Part shown: positions 35,017-63,340 of the stretch, in pieces
How the letters are laid out: every line of letters starts with the position of its first letter
Numbering within the stretch: the first letter of the stretch is position 1
From: a virus
Lineage: Duplodnaviria; Caudoviricetes
DNA: 64,000 bases
Strand: one strand, 5' to 3'
IMG/VR virus record: IMGVR_UViG_3300035499_000517
Location: 64,001-128,000 of that record
Notes under the pieces: model-generated
What the model was told of the DNA's origin: nothing
The model's input: only the letters and a program-made list of their open reading frames with translations
Database searches by the model: none
Translations under genes and position numbers: made by a program

Positions 35017-37980
35017 ATGGGATTTGAAGAATTGAAGTTCTTGAATACCAAATGGAAGGAGGAACCGCTCAATTATTTAACATATATTAATTCGATTGAA
35101 AACTCCGGAACGAAGAGTTATATTATGCAGGAGGGAAACGAAGATGCTTGGAGAGAGTTGATTTCAAAGTCAACGATGTTCTGGGCAAATGAAGGAATAC
35201 GAGATGCTGTTTATGAAAGGCTTACAGAAGATGACGCGCTGTATGTTATGAAGAATCACAAACATCTCGGAAAAGCATTGAATGGATTCGCTGGAAAGAC
35301 GGTATTCTCAACTGGGAATTTCGATAATATCTGTGAATATATGAATATGGATGCAATTCATACAATGCCAGATAAGATTCTGAAGGGATTTGGGAATTAT
35401 GTCGGAGAGAAAATGACTGGAGACGATTCTCTTACATGGATAAGAGATCGTTTCAATGTTGATTTAACGGACTTTAAGGATTTGAACGAAGCGATAGAAA
35501 GCGATGACGCTTGGAAACTCATGGTTATGTCGAGTCCGATGATGAGTTCAGTTTGCTGTTCTGACTGGTTCGTAAATACCGTAATAGAGAAAGCTGGAAT
35601 GACAATATACCGTGATTCCAGTGGAAATTATTATGATGAAGAAGGCAATCATTATTTAGCATCAACTGGAGAGAAAGATGGAAATACAATAAGCACGGAA
35701 ATGCTCGAATCTATGCTTTCCGCCGGTCTTCTTGTAAAAGGGGTTTTGCAGAGAAATGAGAAAATTCAAGAAAAATTCGATGACGCAATGGAATATCTGT
35801 GTCAAAAGAATGCTTTGACTATCATCGAAGAAAATGATAATCTGATAACTGTTGCACTGGAAAGTGATACTTGTTGTGAGTATTTGAGAGATAATCCAGA
35901 TGATCTCCAGTATTTATTGGAGACAAATAAGTTCACTGAGCAGTTATTTAAATCTGAACACGCTCTTACAACGCTTTCCGGAAATCAGGATGCATTAAAG
36001 GTCATTGTAAACTTTATCGGTGATATTCAGGAGTCTTATGATACCTTAAGTGAACTTACAACAGAATTAGAGAAGATTCATAGTTATGGAGATAAAATTT
36101 ATAATTATGAACCACTGAAGTACAGTGTACAAAATACATTGACCACATTAAAGAATCAAGCAGAAGCATTGGATTCTGTTCAGGAATATAGCACGTTTGT
36201 GCAGACGATGTTTAATGGGTTATGGGAGAATGATGACTTTTTCGAAGTCTTATTTAATAATGAAAAACTTGTAATAGCAATGGTGGATGATGAAAGATGT
36301 ATGGTACAAATACTGACAAGAGAAACCGTTGGTGAAACATTAGCGAGTAACAGAAGGATGTACCCAATTGCATTAACAAGTGAAGCATTTGTAAATGGAA
36401 TGCTTACAAACGATAAGTATTTCGAGAAGGTGTTTATTTCGGATCGGTACCGGATGGGAGATATTTATGATAGTGAAACGGCATTAAGTGTTATAGGGGA
36501 AAGTGAAGAATACACAAGAAGATTTTTAAATGCTGCAATGGGATATAATGACAATGAGTATTCAGATTTAAAAACGAATATCTCAAATTCAGAATGGGCA
36601 GCAAGTATTGCAGCAGATGAATTCTTGGTGAAGTTCTCTAGTGATTCGAATGCTTATCTGGAATATTTAGTAGATAGTGTCGTGGGAATGAATGCACTTT
36701 TATCGAATACCTATCGAAGTTATTTTGATACCGAACGGGCATATGCAAAAATTCGTGAGCACGGTGGTGTTGCAATGTGTAAATGGGCATTGCAAAAAAC
36801 GAATGACATATGGAATTATAGTTATGATATTACGAAGTATTTATCTTTTGATTATTTAAAATATGGATATGATGTGAGTACTTCAAAATACACTGCAACT
36901 GATGGTTGCTCATATTCGGCATTGCTTAGAAATTGTATTCTTGCAAATCCTGATGTAATGTGTGATATGTTTATAAAAGATGATTCTACATATCTTATCA
37001 AGCAATTATTTAATGGTGGTAATAATTATAGTCCTTCAACAGTACCCTTCGTAAGTCAAGTAAATGATTCATTGATTCTTTATCCATTTGAAACTATAAA
37101 GGATAGATGTATGGAGAACTCGTATTTTCTTGGAAATTTTTTAAAATTTTTTACAAAATTTTATACCACCAGAGTATACGGAAGTAACACCAGCTCAACT
37201 ATTACAATAGATCTTCGATCTGCTACAGATTATCAGCCAACAAATACAGATATAAAAGATTATAATTCAGATGATTTCAAGCATTTTAATAATTTGATGA
37301 GTGCATATAAAGATAGCTATGTAAAATCTTCTACTCAATTAAAAGATTGGATATACAATTCCTCTATTTTCATTATCCCATATATGATTTATCTTTTTAG
37401 AGGTACTAATTTTCATGTTCATGATGGAGATATTGAAGGATTTTTTAATGATTCTGTATGTATTAACGGCTGTATCAATGTTGAAAATATTTGTCAAATG
37501 CTCTGTGCATCTACAAAATTGATGACATATGCAGCAAATAATAAAGATGCACTCATGGTTTTATATAATCAAGCATCTGCTATTGAAACTGCTTTCGCTT
37601 CAACTGCAAATAAAGATTATATGAATTGCCAGACTTTATCATACAATGCATTTTTAAATTCACCATATCTTGTAGTACATACTTTTTATGATAAATCGTC
37701 TAATCAAAAATATCTTTTAAGTACAGCTGGTGAAGTTACAGTTTATGATGGTCCGGCACTTATACTTTCTATCACATTTGGAACTGATTCTAGTACGCTG
37801 GTTGGACAATTTACAACATTAACAACAACTACAAAGACAAAAACTTACAGTGCAACAACAGAGAAGATACTTTTATTTGTTGATAAGTTGACATTACAGA
37901 ATAAAGGGTCTGGAACAGTTGAATCAATCACATATATCCCACTTGGTGATCAACCAGAAAGTACAGTTCTGAATACTTGA
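35017..37980 (+). CDS. Large hypothetical protein, possibly tail-fibre/receptor-binding related
   Basis: 987 aa; degenerate short helical repeats; AT-richer, Thr-rich C-terminal region; SD GGAGAGG. Confidence 0.65.
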   Translation: MGFEELKFLNTKWKEEPLNYLTYINSIENSGTKSYIMQEGNEDAWRELISKSTMFWANEGIRDAVYERLTEDDALYVMKNHKHLGKALNGFAGKTVFSTGNFDNICEYMNMDAIHTMPDKILKGFGNYVGEKMTGDDSLTWIRDRFNVDLTDFKDLNEAIESDDAWKLMVMSSPMMSSVCCSDWFVNTVIEKAGMTIYRDSSGNYYDEEGNHYLASTGEKDGNTISTEMLESMLSAGLLVKGVLQRNEKIQEKFDDAMEYLCQKNALTIIEENDNLITVALESDTCCEYLRDNPDDLQYLLETNKFTEQLFKSEHALTTLSGNQDALKVIVNFIGDIQESYDTLSELTTELEKIHSYGDKIYNYEPLKYSVQNTLTTLKNQAEALDSVQEYSTFVQTMFNGLWENDDFFEVLFNNEKLVIAMVDDERCMVQILTRETVGETLASNRRMYPIALTSEAFVNGMLTNDKYFEKVFISDRYRMGDIYDSETALSVIGESEEYTRRFLNAAMGYNDNEYSDLKTNISNSEWAASIAADEFLVKFSSDSNAYLEYLVDSVVGMNALLSNTYRSYFDTERAYAKIREHGGVAMCKWALQKTNDIWNYSYDITKYLSFDYLKYGYDVSTSKYTATDGCSYSALLRNCILANPDVMCDMFIKDDSTYLIKQLFNGGNNYSPSTVPFVSQVNDSLILYPFETIKDRCMENSYFLGNFLKFFTKFYTTRVYGSNTSSTITIDLRSATDYQPTNTDIKDYNSDDFKHFNNLMSAYKDSYVKSSTQLKDWIYNSSIFIIPYMIYLFRGTNFHVHDGDIEGFFNDSVCINGCINVENICQMLCASTKLMTYAANNKDALMVLYNQASAIETAFASTANKDYMNCQTLSYNAFLNSPYLVVHTFYDKSSNQKYLLSTAGEVTVYDGPALILSITFGTDSSTLVGQFTTLTTTTKTKTYSATTEKILLFVDKLTLQNKGSGTVESITYIPLGDQPESTVLNT

Positions 37981-57453: not shown

Positions 57454-57472
57454 TTTTACTTATATATTATCT
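57454..57472 (+). promoter_or_regulatory. Putative early promoter motif
   Basis: TTTTACTTATATATTATCT. Confidence 0.75.
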
Positions 57473-57519
57473 TTATGAAGTCTATAGAAAAGCTTTCTTA
57501 AGAAAAGGAGAAATGAGAC

Positions 57520-58587
57520 ATGAGTGAATTGACAAAGAACGAGATGTTAGAAGCAATGGCAAAGATTCAGATGCGTTCGTATGGGACACATGGAATTTTC
57601 AATCGTTACACAACTCCAGAGATCATCAATAAGAACTGGGTTGAACAGATCTTTTTGGATGGTGAATTCCACTGTAATTACTGCTTTGCGTTTTTCCGGG
57701 AGTTAATAAAGAAGGATGCTGTCCTTCTTAACAAAAAGGGAAAGACCTTAGATGTAAAGGAGCGTATTTCACTGGATTACACAACAACCTGGAATGAGCT
57801 TGCCCAAGTAGTATCAGACATCATAGCTGCAACAAATGGCGATATCGTTGCAAGTATGACAGATTTAAAGAAAGCGTTACTGAAGGCATGTGTTGACTTT
57901 TACATGACAACACATTTTGTGATTCCGGCAGAGCTTGCTGAACATGGATACAACACGTTTACATCAGAAAACTTGTACGAGGATTGTCAGATTGAGTGTG
58001 TAGTTCCAGATATTTCTTTTGGTTATAAGCTTCATGGTTTGGATAACGTTGATACGGTGAAGTTACAAGAGATCACTGCTTCAAGTGGAGATATCGCAGC
58101 AAATATCACATCTGGTGATATTAATTTATGGAATGATGCAGCGCATAAGGTCGGTGTTATCATTAACTCATTGATGGACGCGTATGAATTTGTAATGGAC
58201 GATTTCCGGTTACGCATGTACAACTTCGTCGATTATCTATATCATAATGCAATGCTTGAAGATGATGATTATGAATACGGTGAAGCTCTACTATATTCTG
58301 TTAGTGAGATTGAGCGGATTCAGTATTCACCTATCATCCGGCTTCTTGAAGAGAACCCAAATCTCAGACGTGTAATGGAAGTAATGGCGGCTAGTTACGG
58401 GGATTATGTAAATCAAGTGTTCGCTGATAAACTTGCAGAAGCTATGTTTAGCATGTTTCAGATTGAACTTATGCGCGGTGGCGATACTGATAAGACGATC
58501 CCAGCTCTTTCTGAGAAAGTTCGGATTGAGCATTCAGTGAACTATACTCGTCCAGTTATCAAACACATGGGGAAACAGGATGATTAA
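57520..58587 (+). CDS. Hypothetical early protein
   Basis: 355 aa; SD AAGGAG. Confidence 0.8.
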   Translation: MSELTKNEMLEAMAKIQMRSYGTHGIFNRYTTPEIINKNWVEQIFLDGEFHCNYCFAFFRELIKKDAVLLNKKGKTLDVKERISLDYTTTWNELAQVVSDIIAATNGDIVASMTDLKKALLKACVDFYMTTHFVIPAELAEHGYNTFTSENLYEDCQIECVVPDISFGYKLHGLDNVDTVKLQEITASSGDIAANITSGDINLWNDAAHKVGVIINSLMDAYEFVMDDFRLRMYNFVDYLYHNAMLEDDDYEYGEALLYSVSEIERIQYSPIIRLLEENPNLRRVMEVMAASYGDYVNQVFADKLAEAMFSMFQIELMRGGDTDKTIPALSEKVRIEHSVNYTRPVIKHMGKQDD

Positions 58588-58602
58588 AAAAATCAACTTA
58601 AT

Positions 58603-58621
58603 TTTCATTTATATAATATCT
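58603..58621 (+). promoter_or_regulatory. Putative early promoter motif heading the DUF4116/array operon
   Basis: TTTCATTTATATAATATCT. Confidence 0.75.
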
Positions 58622-59116
58622 ATATAGATACATGAGAAAGGATATGTACTGAAAGGAGGGCATTTTGATATTCTCGTATCAACCACGTCCGGTTGTGGCT
58701 GAATTCTACATGAAATAATTCCATGTATTGTGGCTAGTATATGGATAGTTTTGTGAATGGATTCATTTGTTACTCGTGAACCTGATTGATAGTATTATAA
58801 TTACCTTGATTTTTATATACTTGATTTTGATGATTTGTGAATGTAAAAACAAAGTGTTTTGGCAATGGGCACTTTATGACAATCGTGACATTCTAAAGCG
58901 TGGCAGCAACGTCGTTAAAATGGTATATGAAAAGCATGAGAAATTTATAATAATATCAATTCAGAGACATTTAATTAAGGAGGTTTAAGATTTCCTCTCT
59001 AACCTTCTCGTATTCTTTTAGTTTAGATAAAATTTAAATGGTGAAGACTGGCCTATGTAATTGATCGGAAAATGGTTGGTCTTCACCATTTACTGTCACT
59101 TTAGGAGGAAAAAAAT

Positions 59117-60067
59117 ATGAGTTTATTTGAGACAGAGGCAGAAAGAGGTTGGCAATTAAGTTTTCGAATTAATAGTGAATTACTTAGTAAAATGGCACCA
59201 AGTGAACAGACTGAAGAAGTTTGTATCATGGCAGTAGAAAGAGATGCAGATAATTTAAAGTATGTAGTAGATCAAACAAGAACGGTTTGCTATGAAGCAA
59301 TTAGAAGAAACCCAGATACATTGCAGTATGTCTGGGATCAAACGGATGACATCTGCTTGCTTGCAGTTATGACAGATGGGTTGGTCCTTCGTTATGTACA
59401 AAATCAAACCGAAGAAATTTGTCTTGCTGCAGTGAAACAAAATCCGGAAGCAATCATCTATGTAAAATCTCAAACGTATCGTATCAAAGAAGCAGCGATA
59501 AAAAGAGATGGCATGATGCTTCGATATATAACCCTTCCAACGGAGTACTTCTATGAGCTGGCATTGAAGCAGAATCCGAATGCAATCATTTTCATCAAAG
59601 ATCCAACGGATGAACAAGTTGATTATGTATTAGAGCAGAATCCGGGATTAATCTCTGTTGTGGAGCAGACTGAAGAAAGGAGGTCAAAAGTTTTAGAGAA
59701 TTGCCCAGCATGTATTCAATATATTCATGAACCATCAACAAACGAATGCATTCATGTCGTTTCAACGGATGGGTTATGCTTACCAAATATCACACAGAAA
59801 TATCGGACAAAATCAATATACTTTTATGCTGTAAAAGAAAATCCAGAAGCATTGGATTATGTCGTAGCAGATCATCCAGACGACGATATCATTTTTACTT
59901 GTGGAGTAGAGGCTTGTGAAATCGGAGGACTGAAATATTTATTCCGTCTTAAGAATAACAAGTTTCGAGTATTCAGGGAGATAATGAGAAATCGTAGACA
60001 TCGTCTTTTTAGAAGGGTTGAAGATAAGGTCGATGATTTCTTCAATTGGTTTTTCGGACCTCGCTAA
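59117..60067 (+). CDS. DUF4116-like helical repeat protein
   Basis: About ten 22-aa repeats of type QTEEICLAAVKQNPEAIIYVK; SD AGGAGG. Confidence 0.82.
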   Translation: MSLFETEAERGWQLSFRINSELLSKMAPSEQTEEVCIMAVERDADNLKYVVDQTRTVCYEAIRRNPDTLQYVWDQTDDICLLAVMTDGLVLRYVQNQTEEICLAAVKQNPEAIIYVKSQTYRIKEAAIKRDGMMLRYITLPTEYFYELALKQNPNAIIFIKDPTDEQVDYVLEQNPGLISVVEQTEERRSKVLENCPACIQYIHEPSTNECIHVVSTDGLCLPNITQKYRTKSIYFYAVKENPEALDYVVADHPDDDIIFTCGVEACEIGGLKYLFRLKNNKFRVFREIMRNRRHRLFRRVEDKVDDFFNWFFGPR

Positions 60068-60617
60068 GGATAAGTTGAGTCTGTCGAGGTGATGTAGTGG
60101 TATAGACTGGTAATGCTTAGTGACGTGATGTTTTGTTGCGTGGCGTAATGGTATAGTGCATTGACGTAATGGTATAGTGAAGATGGTACAGTGCTGTGAT
60201 GTATTGGCGTAGTTGATCTATGTGGCGTGCAGTGAAGTATTGGTGTTGTTTAGTGAGGAATGCTCAGATATGCAATTGGTAGTCTGATGCTCAGTTCAGT
60301 GTTGCCAGGTGAAGTGTTGGTATCGTTTAGTGATGAGGGTTGTGCTCTGGAGAGGTATAGAAAAGTAGAGTTATCTTAAGTAATGGTGTAGTTTGGTGAC
60401 GCTAGTTTTGTAACGTAAAGGTAGGGTAGAGTAGAACACTGTTCTGTTCCGTGTCGGTGAAGTGAAGTTTCGTACTGTGGAGCAACGTTTCGCATAGGTA
60501 AGGTAAAGTATCTCATATTTGTGTTCAGCATAGGTGAAGTAAAGTGGTGAAAGGAATGTGTAGTATGGGTATTGTTTAGTGACGCAAATTGTCGATATGT
60601 TTTGTTTTGGCAGAGTA
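60068..60617 (+). repeat. Non-coding 5-nt-period xG(T/C)-NN array 1 (candidate guide-RNA array)
   Basis: GT every 5 nt with variable triplets between; GTAATGGT-like junctions at 60145, 60166, 60201, 60237, 60380, 60415, 60451, 60492, 60528, 60563, 60604; no ORF >=60 aa. Confidence 0.85.
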
Positions 60618-60674
60618 TTAAGAGATATCTAATTTTGGAGCTTATTGATTTTATTGTGAAGAAAGGAGTGTGAA

Positions 60675-60896
60675 ATGGAAGTAAAGATTACATCAGAAAA
60701 AGATATTGTATTTAACACCGAGGAATTACCAAAAGTCAAAGAAGAGCTAAATGAAATAGCAAATAAACTTGACGCTTTACAAGAACGTGATTTCTTCCAA
60801 GATAATGAAAATACCTTCATGAAAATCTTGGGAGATGCAATCACGTCCATTGATGATTTACTCGATGATATCGAAACCCTGGAATCTCAGATCTAA
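60675..60896 (+). CDS. Small acidic helical protein between the arrays
   Basis: SD AAGGAG; 73 aa; DAITSIDDLLDDIETLE. Confidence 0.75.
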   Translation: MEVKITSEKDIVFNTEELPKVKEELNEIANKLDALQERDFFQDNENTFMKILGDAITSIDDLLDDIETLESQI

Positions 60897-61713
60897 GCAA
60901 AGGTTTTCCATAGTGTAGTCCGCTTTTGTACTGGTATGGTCCAGTAAAGAGGGAAATGTGACGTTCAGTACGGGCGTGGTCACGTGAGGTACTGTATGGC
61001 TTTGTGCCGTAAAGGTGAGGTAAAGCAAGTCATTGTATAGTTAAGGAGATGTAAGGCTTGGAACAGTAGCGATTGGTTGGGTATCGTAATGGTATTGTCA
61101 GGTAGTGTGGTGGCATAGCCGAGTGGCGTAGTGTTTTGTGTTGATATGGTTATCTGGCGTGCTGTATGGTTGTGTGACGATTGTTGAGTATTTTAGAAAA
61201 TCTTTAGTTGGTGTTGTAATGATAACGCCAGACATCGGATGGTAAAGTTTCGTGATGGTATATTATAGTGGGGTCCTGCGTGGTATAGGAATAGCTTGGA
61301 ATAGTAGGGTTGGGTCTAGTAGAGTAACGGTGTGACTAGGATATGAACAGTGATGTATCGTTACGGAGAGGCTAGGTTAAGAACCGTGATGTACCAGAAT
61401 AGTTTAGTCTAGTAGAGCATGGTGTAGTTATGGTGCAGTTACGCTCCGAAATGTGAGGTAACGGTACAGTGAGGAAATGCTACGCATGGGTGTAGTGCTA
61501 TTACGTAGCGTATTGGTATAGTTGCATATAGATATGTGCTGTGATGGTATGGACCAGTGTCGTTAGTAAAGTATTGCAATGGTATATTGAGGAAGGGTTA
61601 AGTATAGGTAGGGTTACGAACAGTTAAGAATAGTTGTGGTGAGGACTGGTTAACCATAGTAACGAACCGGTTTGGTTGCGTGGGTTAAAGTATACTCAGG
61701 TAATGGTAAAGTA
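60897..61713 (+). repeat. Non-coding 5-nt-period xG(T/C)-NN array 2 (candidate guide-RNA array)
   Basis: Same grammar; junctions at 60897, 60928, 60968, 61009, 61086, 61458, 61484, 61510, 61541, 61576, 61602, 61633, 61700. Confidence 0.85.
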
Positions 61714-61768
61714 TTTTAAAATTTCTAATATTGGTGAAAGTAATTAAAGACACGAAAGGAAGTATTAA

Positions 61769-62050
61769 ATGGAAGAGAAATTAAGAAACAACACAAATTC
61801 CCTCTATGAAGTAACAGAGACGATAACTGGAGTGGATTCTCTGCTGAGTTATCTGAGGAGTATCTCAGACACAGAGACACTGAATGCAAGTACAAAGATT
61901 TCTCATTATACAGCAAATGCAATTACTGATCTTGAGAATTTGAAATCTGAGCTGGAGTCTCTTAGAAGATATAAGATTGTAGAGCGAAGGGAAGCAGCAA
62001 TCGGGATTTATCCATCAGATGCTCTTGCTAAAAGTTCTAACGTAGTGTGA
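61769..62050 (+). CDS. Small helical protein after array 2
   Basis: SD AAGGA; 93 aa; NAITDLENLKSELESLR. Confidence 0.72.
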   Translation: MEEKLRNNTNSLYEVTETITGVDSLLSYLRSISDTETLNASTKISHYTANAITDLENLKSELESLRRYKIVERREAAIGIYPSDALAKSSNVV

Positions 62051-62060
62051 ACGAGAAAAT

Positions 62061-62100
62061 AAGGAGAGGATGAACACAACCATTCATCCTCTCTTTTTTT
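62061..62100. terminator. Intrinsic terminator closing the array operon (probably bidirectional)
   Basis: GAGAGGATGAA/TTCATCCTCTC + T-run. Confidence 0.8.
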
Positions 62101-63340
62101 ATCCTTCGTATCCAGCCGGATACATAACACTGATGTCATAATTGACTTCCTGAAGTTTCTTTGCTAATGCAATCTTTCTGAGATTGTAAAGCTCTTTGAT
62201 TACATAAACAAGATACTCCTCACTGTGTGGAACCTTTAATTTTTTTGCAAACTTTGGGTTCCTGATGGTATCCAGATAGTATTGAGCCAGCTCAATCTTG
62301 CTGTTAATGTAAGAGACAATCATCATCTTATCATTCACAGTCTTCATATCACTGATTTTAATCCGGATATAATCCAACTGATTTCTATCAATTGGTTTCA
62401 TTGTCTTTGTTCCACCGATCTCTTCATAGTATGCATCGTGAGCAATCTTAGAAGCAAGATCTGCGATGTATGCACTTCTTCTCTCACTGTCATTTTCTCC
62501 AGCTGCATCCATAAAGAACATCTTGTAACTTTCATCAGCAGATTCAAATACATAAGAAGCACTCGGAACCCTCTTCTTTAAATCAAGAAGATTCTTCTTT
62601 GCAAGAGCTGTCTTTCTCTTGCTGAGCTGATCAAATACTTCATTTGTATAATTGACAGCAGAACCAAGCTCATCTACAGGACTTGTTAACTGCTTTCTGT
62701 TTTTCAGGTACTGCTCGATCTTTCCCATTGCTGTCACAAGTTGTCCAGCATAGCCATTTCTTGCAGCCATATTATCGGCTTTGATTTCTTTTCTTACGCC
62801 ATTCTTATCATAAGAGAACTGGCAAGCAACAACAACCGGTAAGGAAACCAGTTTGGTAAATGGCTTATTTGTCATCATTGCTTTCTGAGCAAGTGGACTT
62901 GTTGTAAGAGAGAACTGAACGATCTCATGGAGTTTTGTCGGAACGGAATCTCCATCAATCATATGTCCAATCTCATGTAACGTCAGAGCAGTTAACTCTT
63001 CTGCTGTTAAGATACTAAGAAGTCCAGTATCAATATCCAGTCTCCAAGAAGCAGCTCGCTTCCAGATTTCACGAATGGTATCAATAGTACTATCCTGATT
63101 AATGACTGCTTCCGTAATCTTTTCAATGGTAGATTTGTCCGGCGTAATCGCCATTCCAAAGAAGTTATTATCTAAAACAGGCTTAATCAAGCGTACTGAT
63201 ATTTTCTTTCCTGTTGCTTTCACGATTGCAGTCTGAAGTGCTGCAGAAGCAGTATCTAATGCATGAAGATTCTTTTCATCTGCATGGGCAATCAGATTGC
63301 TAAAAGCTTCAGTAATTTCAGTCGTTGAAATTTGACTCAT
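62099..63340 (-). CDS. Zincin (HEXXH) metallopeptidase-like protein, probably virion-associated
   Basis: LTAEELTALTLHEIGH and downstream EIKADNMAARNGY (M48-like); VFES, YYEE motifs. Confidence 0.72.
   Translation of the reverse strand: MSQISTTEITEAFSNLIAHADEKNLHALDTASAALQTAIVKATGKKISVRLIKPVLDNNFFGMAITPDKSTIEKITEAVINQDSTIDTIREIWKRAASWRLDIDTGLLSILTAEELTALTLHEIGHMIDGDSVPTKLHEIVQFSLTTSPLAQKAMMTNKPFTKLVSLPVVVACQFSYDKNGVRKEIKADNMAARNGYAGQLVTAMGKIEQYLKNRKQLTSPVDELGSAVNYTNEVFDQLSKRKTALAKKNLLDLKKRVPSASYVFESADESYKMFFMDAAGENDSERRSAYIADLASKIAHDAYYEEIGGTKTMKPIDRNQLDYIRIKISDMKTVNDKMMIVSYINSKIELAQYYLDTIRNPKFAKKLKVPHSEEYLVYVIKELYNLRKIALAKKLQEVNYDISVMYPAGYEG

Follow-up and report, generated by a model that had tools for sequence, protein, structure and literature searches.

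Two pentamer arrays with the grammar of staggered VIPR guide RNAs in an accessory island of a jumbo-type phage

The tract at positions 60897 to 61713 of the window (the whole 64,000-nt stretch of phage DNA that we analysed) is very probably an array of VIPR-family vrRNAs. Arrays with the same grammar are present in 11 phage genomes that carry Vipr, and we therefore assign the tract to the non-canonical, "staggered" type of VIPR vrRNA array. VIPR systems are CRISPR-like systems of phages described in April 2026 (bioRxiv 10.64898/2026.04.26.720920). Vipr is a small Cas7-like protein that forms polymers along vrRNAs; these RNAs consist of GGY/NN pentamers and are gapped guides, whose NN bases read DNA under a rule that skips one base (bioRxiv 10.64898/2026.04.26.720920 and 10.64898/2026.04.26.720927). 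The discovery is months old, and the diversity of VIPR systems is still being mapped. The kind of system is known since that time; what is particular to this locus is a bank of ~50 putative guide units in an island in which no effector gene was found.

Grammar and boundaries of the arrays

The array at 60897 to 61713 (array 2, + strand) starts with a base that directly abuts the TAA stop of the ORF at 60675 to 60896, and it ends at about 61713. Over its ~815 nt it is poor in C and rich in G and T relative to the window (A.26, C.11, G.32, T.31; whole window C.18, G.20). A Fourier analysis found no global period-5 signal in the array, because the phase slips along it, and autocorrelation was used in place of the global test. 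GT is followed by another GT 5 nt downstream in 52 of 119 cases (z = 8.2 against first-order Markov simulations), with further peaks at lags of 10/11, 15/16 and 20/21 nt, and the mean period is ~5.2 nt. Parsed by dynamic programming, the array resolves into 161 units with the consensus N-G-Y-N-N, of which 132 are 5-nt, 23 are 6-nt and 5 are 4-nt units: G2 is present in 86% and Y3 in 84% of units, and G1 in just 45%, i.e., the N-G-Y/N-N variant of the repeat. Like VIPR arrays in general, array 2 thus consists of pentamer repeats with a fixed core and variable bases. The first-pass annotation had described ~815 nt and roughly 160 pentamers straight after the stop of the upstream ORF, with an example series from position 60973; the parse recovers the same extent and, for the example, identical letters.

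The 6-nt units are not random. Across both arrays there are 38 such junctions, which have the common logo G-T-A-W-T / G-G-T-R-W (the slash marks the junction), and the distance from one junction to the next is 5n+1 nt in 28 of 36–37 cases, mostly 26–41 nt. Array 2 accordingly falls into ~29 segments, each of 5n+1 nt and 2–10 pentamers (mostly 4–8), which are parted solely by the +1 junction, typically GT-AAT/GGT-A. We interpret these segments as putative VIPR-type guide RNAs, in array 2 of 4–9 pentamers each.

A second tract of this kind, array 1, lies at 60068 to 60618 (+ strand), directly 3' of the stop of a DUF4116 gene, and comprises ~109 units in ~22 segments that follow the grammar of array 2 with other variable bases. 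These are the only two sites with the pentamer signal when the window and the entire 114.8-kb contig are scanned. The best local alignment between the two arrays scores 39; grammar-preserving shuffles score 32–34 (sd 4), and 17/200 and 27/200 of them attain 39 or more. Apart from the grammar, the two arrays therefore have no identity in common. This agrees with the first-pass annotation, which saw no long identity between them, and it contradicts the possibility raised there that array 2 arose from array 1 by simple duplication and divergence.

Each array closes with AGTATT, and the motif TCTAATWTTGGWG follows ~10 nt on; in the window this motif is present at 60628 and 61724 only. Downstream of array 1, the AT-rich end at 60619 to 60674 (+ strand) contains TCTAATTTTGGAG at 60628–60640 and the Shine-Dalgarno sequence of ORF73, and downstream of array 2, the AT-rich end at 61714 to 61768 (+ strand) contains TCTAATATTGGTG at 61724–61736 and the Shine-Dalgarno sequence of ORF93. 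The succession of AGTATT, AT-rich stretch and Shine-Dalgarno sequence had already been noted for both arrays, and the shared TCTAATWTTGGWG can be added to it. At these two positions (60628–60640 and 61724–61736), the motif may act as a phage promoter that drives the small ORFs, or may signal 3' processing. By eye, no clear counterpart is seen in the inspected 3' flanks of arrays from other phages.

The arrays lie on the same strand as the flanking genes, start at stop codons and are followed by a terminator-like hairpin at 62061–62096. Folding gave z = -3.3 for array 2 (20 shuffles only) and z = -1.3 for array 1, and we did not accept folded structure from these values; no inverted repeats were found in the arrays. 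Nor do the arrays have the conserved structured 3' tail and 9–16 repeats that define type II vrRNAs. CRISPR direct repeats (~25–40 nt, interspersed with spacers about as long) were not found in array 2, where the repeats seen are just matches of 12–36 nt with 62–92% identity, which result from the shared pentamer grammar. Rfam gave no match within the arrays at E <= 1, and blastn of the locus gave no match among 50,697 phage records.

The same grammar in phages that carry a Cas7-like protein

A scan of IMG/VR with the junction motif as a pattern returned 16 loci, 12 of which fall inside long arrays with a GT period of 5 in 11 phage genomes of 45–258 kb. These arrays are 300–1300 nt each, and several kb in some. 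Their single conserved neighbour, seen at seven loci, is a protein of ~205 aa, and a profile finds copies in the remaining four genomes, for a total of 11 out of 11. The gene lies within ~1–2 kb of the scan-found arrays in 10 of the 11 genomes; in the eleventh, it is beside other arrays. The C-terminus of the protein, G-x-(G/L)-Q-W-R-N-x-G-x-G-R-F, aligns with the G-loop of SUSP1 Vipr, GVGDWRPRFGRF; an HMM of Vipr, derived from 118 sequences of the SUSP1 clade, matches the protein (E = 3.7e-5); and its AlphaFold (AF2) model (21 sequences, pLDDT 83) matches Cas7/Csm3 chains, i.e., a RAMP fold (Foldseek E = 1e-8, probability 1.0). Based on the G-loop alignment, the HMM match and the model match, the ~205-aa protein is therefore a clade of Vipr, to which we refer by its "QWRN G-loop." As a control, we recovered the locus of Escherichia phage SUSP1, which consists of Vipr (phrog_4652; PDB 36pp), vap1 and vrRNA1-4. 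The QWRN clade is abundant: it is found at no fewer than 550 loci in IMG/VR and comprises at least 1160 protein clusters, and many of these loci come from the dataset of the complete relative G001 described below.

In grammar, both arrays cannot be told apart from those of Vipr-bearing phages, and base frequencies agree at each of the five positions. G2 has a frequency of.87 here vs.89–.91 there, and T3.73 vs.77–.81; A3 is.12 vs.04–.07 beside vipr, a slightly more degenerate third position, and 4-nt units are 4% vs 1–2%. The frequency of 6-nt junction units is.14 vs.14–.16, the junction logo is identical, and junctions are spaced 1 mod 5 in 28/36 cases here vs 308/344 in the other arrays. Among 80 loci found through the protein, the arrays beside vipr total ~100–1300 nt per locus, and the 109 + 161 units of this phage are at the upper end of these sizes. 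Where vipr lies upstream in the other phages, the array begins right after the vipr stop, and here the arrays likewise begin after the stop of a gene. The first-pass annotation had read the tracts as a conserved GY scaffold holding independent sets of guides. The scaffold stands, and membership in the VIPR family is supported, the grammar being that of arrays in 11 of 11 Vipr-bearing genomes; no effector gene was found in the contig, and no guide had a target above chance.

Among published systems, the closest are non-canonical VIPR systems. Variant consensus motifs and "staggered" arrays, in which vrRNAs overlap by one base, are mentioned in the first report (legend of fig. S18; bioRxiv 10.64898/2026.04.26.720920), and non-canonical WGT/NN and TGH/NN repeat motifs have also been described (bioRxiv 10.64898/2026.10.21.760802). 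As in those systems, the arrays here are carried by a phage, combine a fixed G-Y core with free bases in each pentamer, and have a one-base offset between successive units with no spacer or tail; they differ in that no vipr was found in the locus or contig, where DUF4116 and a small ORF precede the arrays in its place. The type II VIPR of SUSP1 shares with them the 5-nt period, the fixed G and pyrimidine, and an intergenic array that is rich in G and T and lies on the operon's coding strand, and SUSP1 Vipr shares the W-R G-loop with the protein clade of this array family. However, SUSP1 has four separate vrRNAs of ~100 nt with 9–16 GGY/NN repeats and a conserved pseudoknot tail, whereas the arrays here are continuous tracts of 550–815 nt with a free position 1 (G in 40%), units of 4–10 repeats and no tail. 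Short, untailed segments joined by +1 junctions fit the "staggered" architecture rather than type II vrRNAs. Class 1 CRISPR resembles the array family in having a Cas7/Csm3 RAMP-fold partner, which the model would place at one protomer per short RNA period, but its repeat-spacer unit is 60–79 nt rather than 5 nt, and direct repeats, cas genes and an adaptation module were not found here.

The free first position may have a structural reason. In SUSP1, Asp177 of the G-loop reads G1 (bioRxiv 10.64898/2026.04.26.720927), and in the alignment, this Asp is replaced by Gln in the QWRN clade. The change from Asp to Gln would fit a relaxed requirement at the first base and offers a structural explanation of the looser repeat that can be tested. 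More broadly, the locus ties the non-canonical N-G-Y/N-N grammar and the "staggered" +1 junctions to one abundant Vipr clade.

Several features of the other loci can be recorded here. In a jumbo phage, G003 (IMGVR_UViG_2061766007_000342), arrays lie on both sides of vipr, and there is a distal array locus 22 kb away. In this phage, a TnpB/IS605-OrfB gene (L027:2741-5300; 433 aa; Pfam OrfB_IS605, Cas12f1-like TNB) lies between two stretches of one distal pentamer array, as if an IS had inserted there. In the same genome, the Vipr profile matches as two pieces at 36317-37051 (L044/L046), covering profile positions 3–88 and 90–199; the pieces are ~130 nt apart and each is reported in a 298-aa open frame, which suggests an insertion within this Vipr. 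A Metallophos (calcineurin-like phosphoesterase) gene adjoins arrays in two unrelated large phages (L027:5347-6066 and L030:1-1747) and may be an accessory (vap) gene of the QWRN Vipr clade; it was not seen in the island of the phage studied here.

The accessory island, its effector and its targets

The source record is a 114.8-kb IMG/VR contig with an estimated completeness of 47%, from a jumbo-type phage with a multisubunit RNA polymerase and a genome of ~250 kb. The nearest complete relative that we found, G001, was identified via RNAP beta' (71% identical) and has a genome of 255 kb. The RNAP beta' and M48-like genes that flank the array region are conserved in G001, which has no homologue of anything within 57467 to 62101 and no pentamer array anywhere in its genome. 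The arrays are therefore located in a 4.6-kb accessory island (57467–62101, + strand). Between its RNAP beta' and M48-like genes, G001 has an ORF of 521 aa on the opposite strand (L002:8321-9886), and this interval appears to be a variable slot. Searches of IMG/VR with the M48-like and DUF4116 proteins found no relatives by that route. The island is present in six other assemblies, in which the arrays are 100% identical, so there is no gain or loss of units to read. The phage occurs in the samples JGI 3300043077, 3300043078 and 3300043104 and SRR11792166, SRR11792607 and SRR11792608.

The order of the island is a 355-aa protein, DUF4116, array 1, ORF73, array 2, ORF93 and a bidirectional terminator. 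The 355-aa protein at its start (57520–58587, + strand) is an acidic near-orphan with a poor, mostly helical model and no sign of a RAMP; the model cannot be used as a fold (ESM Atlas pLDDT 0.34, AF2 pLDDT 37). It has two homologues only, and the one at 40% identity sits on a 1.7-kb contig; an identical copy of the protein is encoded on a 257,734-bp contig. The DUF4116 gene (59117–60067, + strand) encodes a helical-repeat protein of 316 aa and lies directly upstream of array 1, in the slot that vipr occupies in other phages where vipr precedes the array. Just 5' of its start, at 59040–59090 of the window, is a long hairpin, ggtgaagactggcc...ggttggtcttcacc, which was not called by the terminator scan. 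ORF73 (60675–60896, + strand), between the arrays, is small, acidic and helical-looking from its sequence, and matches no family; ORF93 (61769–62050, + strand), after array 2, is also small and helical-looking. We rejected the two as paralogues, as BLASTP shows no similarity between them. The hairpin at 62061–62096 resembles a bidirectional intrinsic terminator and closes the + strand unit.

Searches of the island and the 114.8-kb contig, which covers 47% of the genome, with phmmer, phrog_4652, hhalign and two clade HMMs (SUSP1 clade and QWRN clade) turned up no gene for Vipr, a minimal RAMP with an RRM core, a G-loop and a thumb. This includes the SUSP1-clade Vipr (phrog_4652), which is absent from island and contig alike, and the complete relative G001 did not yield a Vipr either. 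The island proteins show no sign of being RAMPs, and the 355-aa protein, DUF4116, ORF73 and ORF93 have no homologue in ~95 VIPR loci.

The per-unit search for gapped targets proposed in the first-pass annotation yielded no target above chance. Under the 1-nt skip rule, gapped matches did not exceed the shuffled-guide controls, whether the search covered the contig itself, G001 or fetched phage DNA totalling 1.65 Mb, and the longest guide (10 units) had no exact gapped match in IMG/VR or 185,579 prokaryotic genomes. A 9-unit guide at 61045–61090 (GA-AA-TT-AC-AG-TT-TG-AT-AA) has 24 exact matches, which reduce to ~8 independent sites (two phage groups and six singletons); by a rough, unmeasured estimate, this is near the 4–7 expected by chance, and no other guides converge on the matched genomes. 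A set of 131 guides from other phages likewise showed no excess in 1.56 Mb at a skip of 0, 1 or 2. In one of the phage groups matched by the 9-unit guide (seven contigs; L133–L136, L143, L149), the NN bases correspond to codon positions 1–2 and the skipped base to the wobble position of an open frame, which on its own is no more than chance.

Possible modes of action and alternative readings

We consider it an even call whether the staggered N-G-Y/N-N arrays 1 and 2 serve a Vipr that is likely encoded in the 53% of the genome that the contig does not cover. By analogy with the published systems, DUF4116, array 1, ORF73, array 2 and ORF93 would be transcribed as one + strand unit that ends at the terminator. 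The array 2 RNA would be cut at or near the +1 junctions, which would represent the ends of individual guides, to give ~29 short RNAs of 5n+1 nt, mostly 26–41 nt. A Cas7-like Vipr of the QWRN clade would load onto these RNAs with one protomer per pentamer, holding G2 and Y3, and the exposed variable bases would engage in gapped pairing with the DNA of competing elements, leading to silencing. The Vipr gene would be outside the island, most likely in the unseen part of the ~250-kb genome; G003 provides a precedent for an array locus 22 kb from vipr. Against this reading stand the failure to find Vipr in the island and the 114.8-kb contig, the proximity of vipr to the scan-found arrays (within ~1–2 kb) in 10 of the 11 other genomes, the failure of the island proteins to recur in any of ~95 VIPR loci, and the lack of targets above chance. 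In addition, the units here have 4–10 pentamers, compared with 9–16 in published vrRNAs, and the structured tail is missing.

It is possible, at somewhat less than even confidence, that the island is instead an orphan (solo) array without a vipr of its own, whose ~50 guide units act in trans on the Vipr, of the same very abundant clade, made by co-resident phages or prophages. They could redirect the Vipr machinery against its owner or other rivals, or could serve as a decoy to titrate out protomers of Vipr, in which case the ~270 pentamers would represent ~270 Vipr binding sites. Consistent with this, searches of the island, the contig and the complete relative G001 found no Vipr, DUF4116 occupies the slot of vipr, and a matching Vipr clade is very common, given its hundreds of IMG/VR loci. 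The grammar is also as tight as in vipr-adjacent arrays, which argues for continued selection. Solo vrRNAs of SUSP1-like phages and satellites are documented to hijack or redirect the Vipr of a rival (bioRxiv 10.64898/2026.10.15.759431). Such solo vrRNAs are carried by SUSP1-like phages that are VIPR-null and by F5 satellites, and the arrays here resemble them in lying on a mobile element with no vipr adjacent and in being proposed to use a Vipr provided in trans. However, the published solo loci have 1–2 vrRNAs, left by a defined vipr-vap1 deletion, with predicted targets (bioRxiv 10.64898/2026.10.15.759431), whereas the 4.6-kb island has ~50 units, none with a target above chance, and the failure to find a vipr covers 47% of the genome only. 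With 53% of the genome unseen, the reading is further weakened by the lack of guides that match the fetched vipr-bearing phages above chance and by G003, which has distal arrays together with vipr in cis.

More tentative, and to be regarded as doubtful, is the specific claim that this jumbo phage has no vipr at all and that its ~50 units (1.4 kb) are a trans weapon against the QWRN-clade VIPR of rivals, whether by loading or as a decoy. RNA anti-CRISPRs are phage-borne repeat mimics that sequester Cas proteins. They too are guide-like phage RNAs without an effector gene, an analogy that applies to the decoy reading only and is one of logic, not sequence; by that analogy, the decoy mode would be an RNA "anti-VIPR." If a complete genome confirms that vipr is absent, no other orphan VIPR array would come close to it in size, and it would provide a natural system to study whether phages hijack or jam one another's RNA-guided silencers.

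We think it improbable that the arrays are a decaying, non-functional relic left after the loss or replacement of vipr. The lack of a nearby vipr would be expected of a relic, and the higher A3 frequency and the larger share of 4-nt units relative to vipr-adjacent arrays point the same way. Yet 1.37 kb of non-coding DNA retains G2 at 87%, the junction logo and the 5n+1 spacing almost as vipr-adjacent arrays do, and the common end motif is kept in both arrays. The island is also identical in six independent assemblies, though these show a single strain only.

A function unrelated to VIPR is more improbable still: a GU-rich periodic RNA for some other multimeric or repeat protein (DUF4116, or a TRAP/CsrA-like sponge), or a DNA structural element. 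A repeat protein, DUF4116, is indeed encoded directly upstream, and the mean period of ~5.2 nt is near half a DNA helical turn. However, DUF4116 is present at 0 of 11 other array-bearing loci, compared with the Cas7-like protein in 11 of 11 genomes. We rejected DUF4116 as the partner of the arrays because arrays are missing next to its homologues, both in Bacillus phage AgentSmith and in Pseudoalteromonas phage Slicky01. A TRAP/CsrA-type motif is not what the array repeats, as TAG or GAG, the (G/U)AG of TRAP, reaches z = 2.5 at lag 5 vs 8.2 for GT, and Rfam is blank. In Slicky01, 1.65 kb without an annotated gene (L025:3109-4762) has no pentamer periodicity.

Array 2 contains no ORF: the longest stop-free run in any frame is 70 codons under code 11 and 98 codons if TAG or TGA is recoded. 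That it encodes protein under an alternative genetic code can be set aside as having next to no probability: stop-free runs of 183–204 codons do appear once TAA is read through (the strand of the runs was not recorded), but such runs would be expected on a G-poor strand because TAG and TGA both contain G, the + strand has 69 stop trinucleotides per 817 nt, the array lacks the period-3 signal present in parts of the flanking coding DNA, and ORF73 terminates in TAA, which is therefore a stop in this phage.

Kilobase-scale banks of these putative guides are found in large and jumbo phages, and some of them are far from vipr. In a 243-kb phage (G002, L043 + L026, ~52.6–57.3 kb), pentamer arrays are near-continuous for ~4.6 kb downstream of vipr, which far exceeds the vrRNA sets in the texts of the cited VIPR papers.
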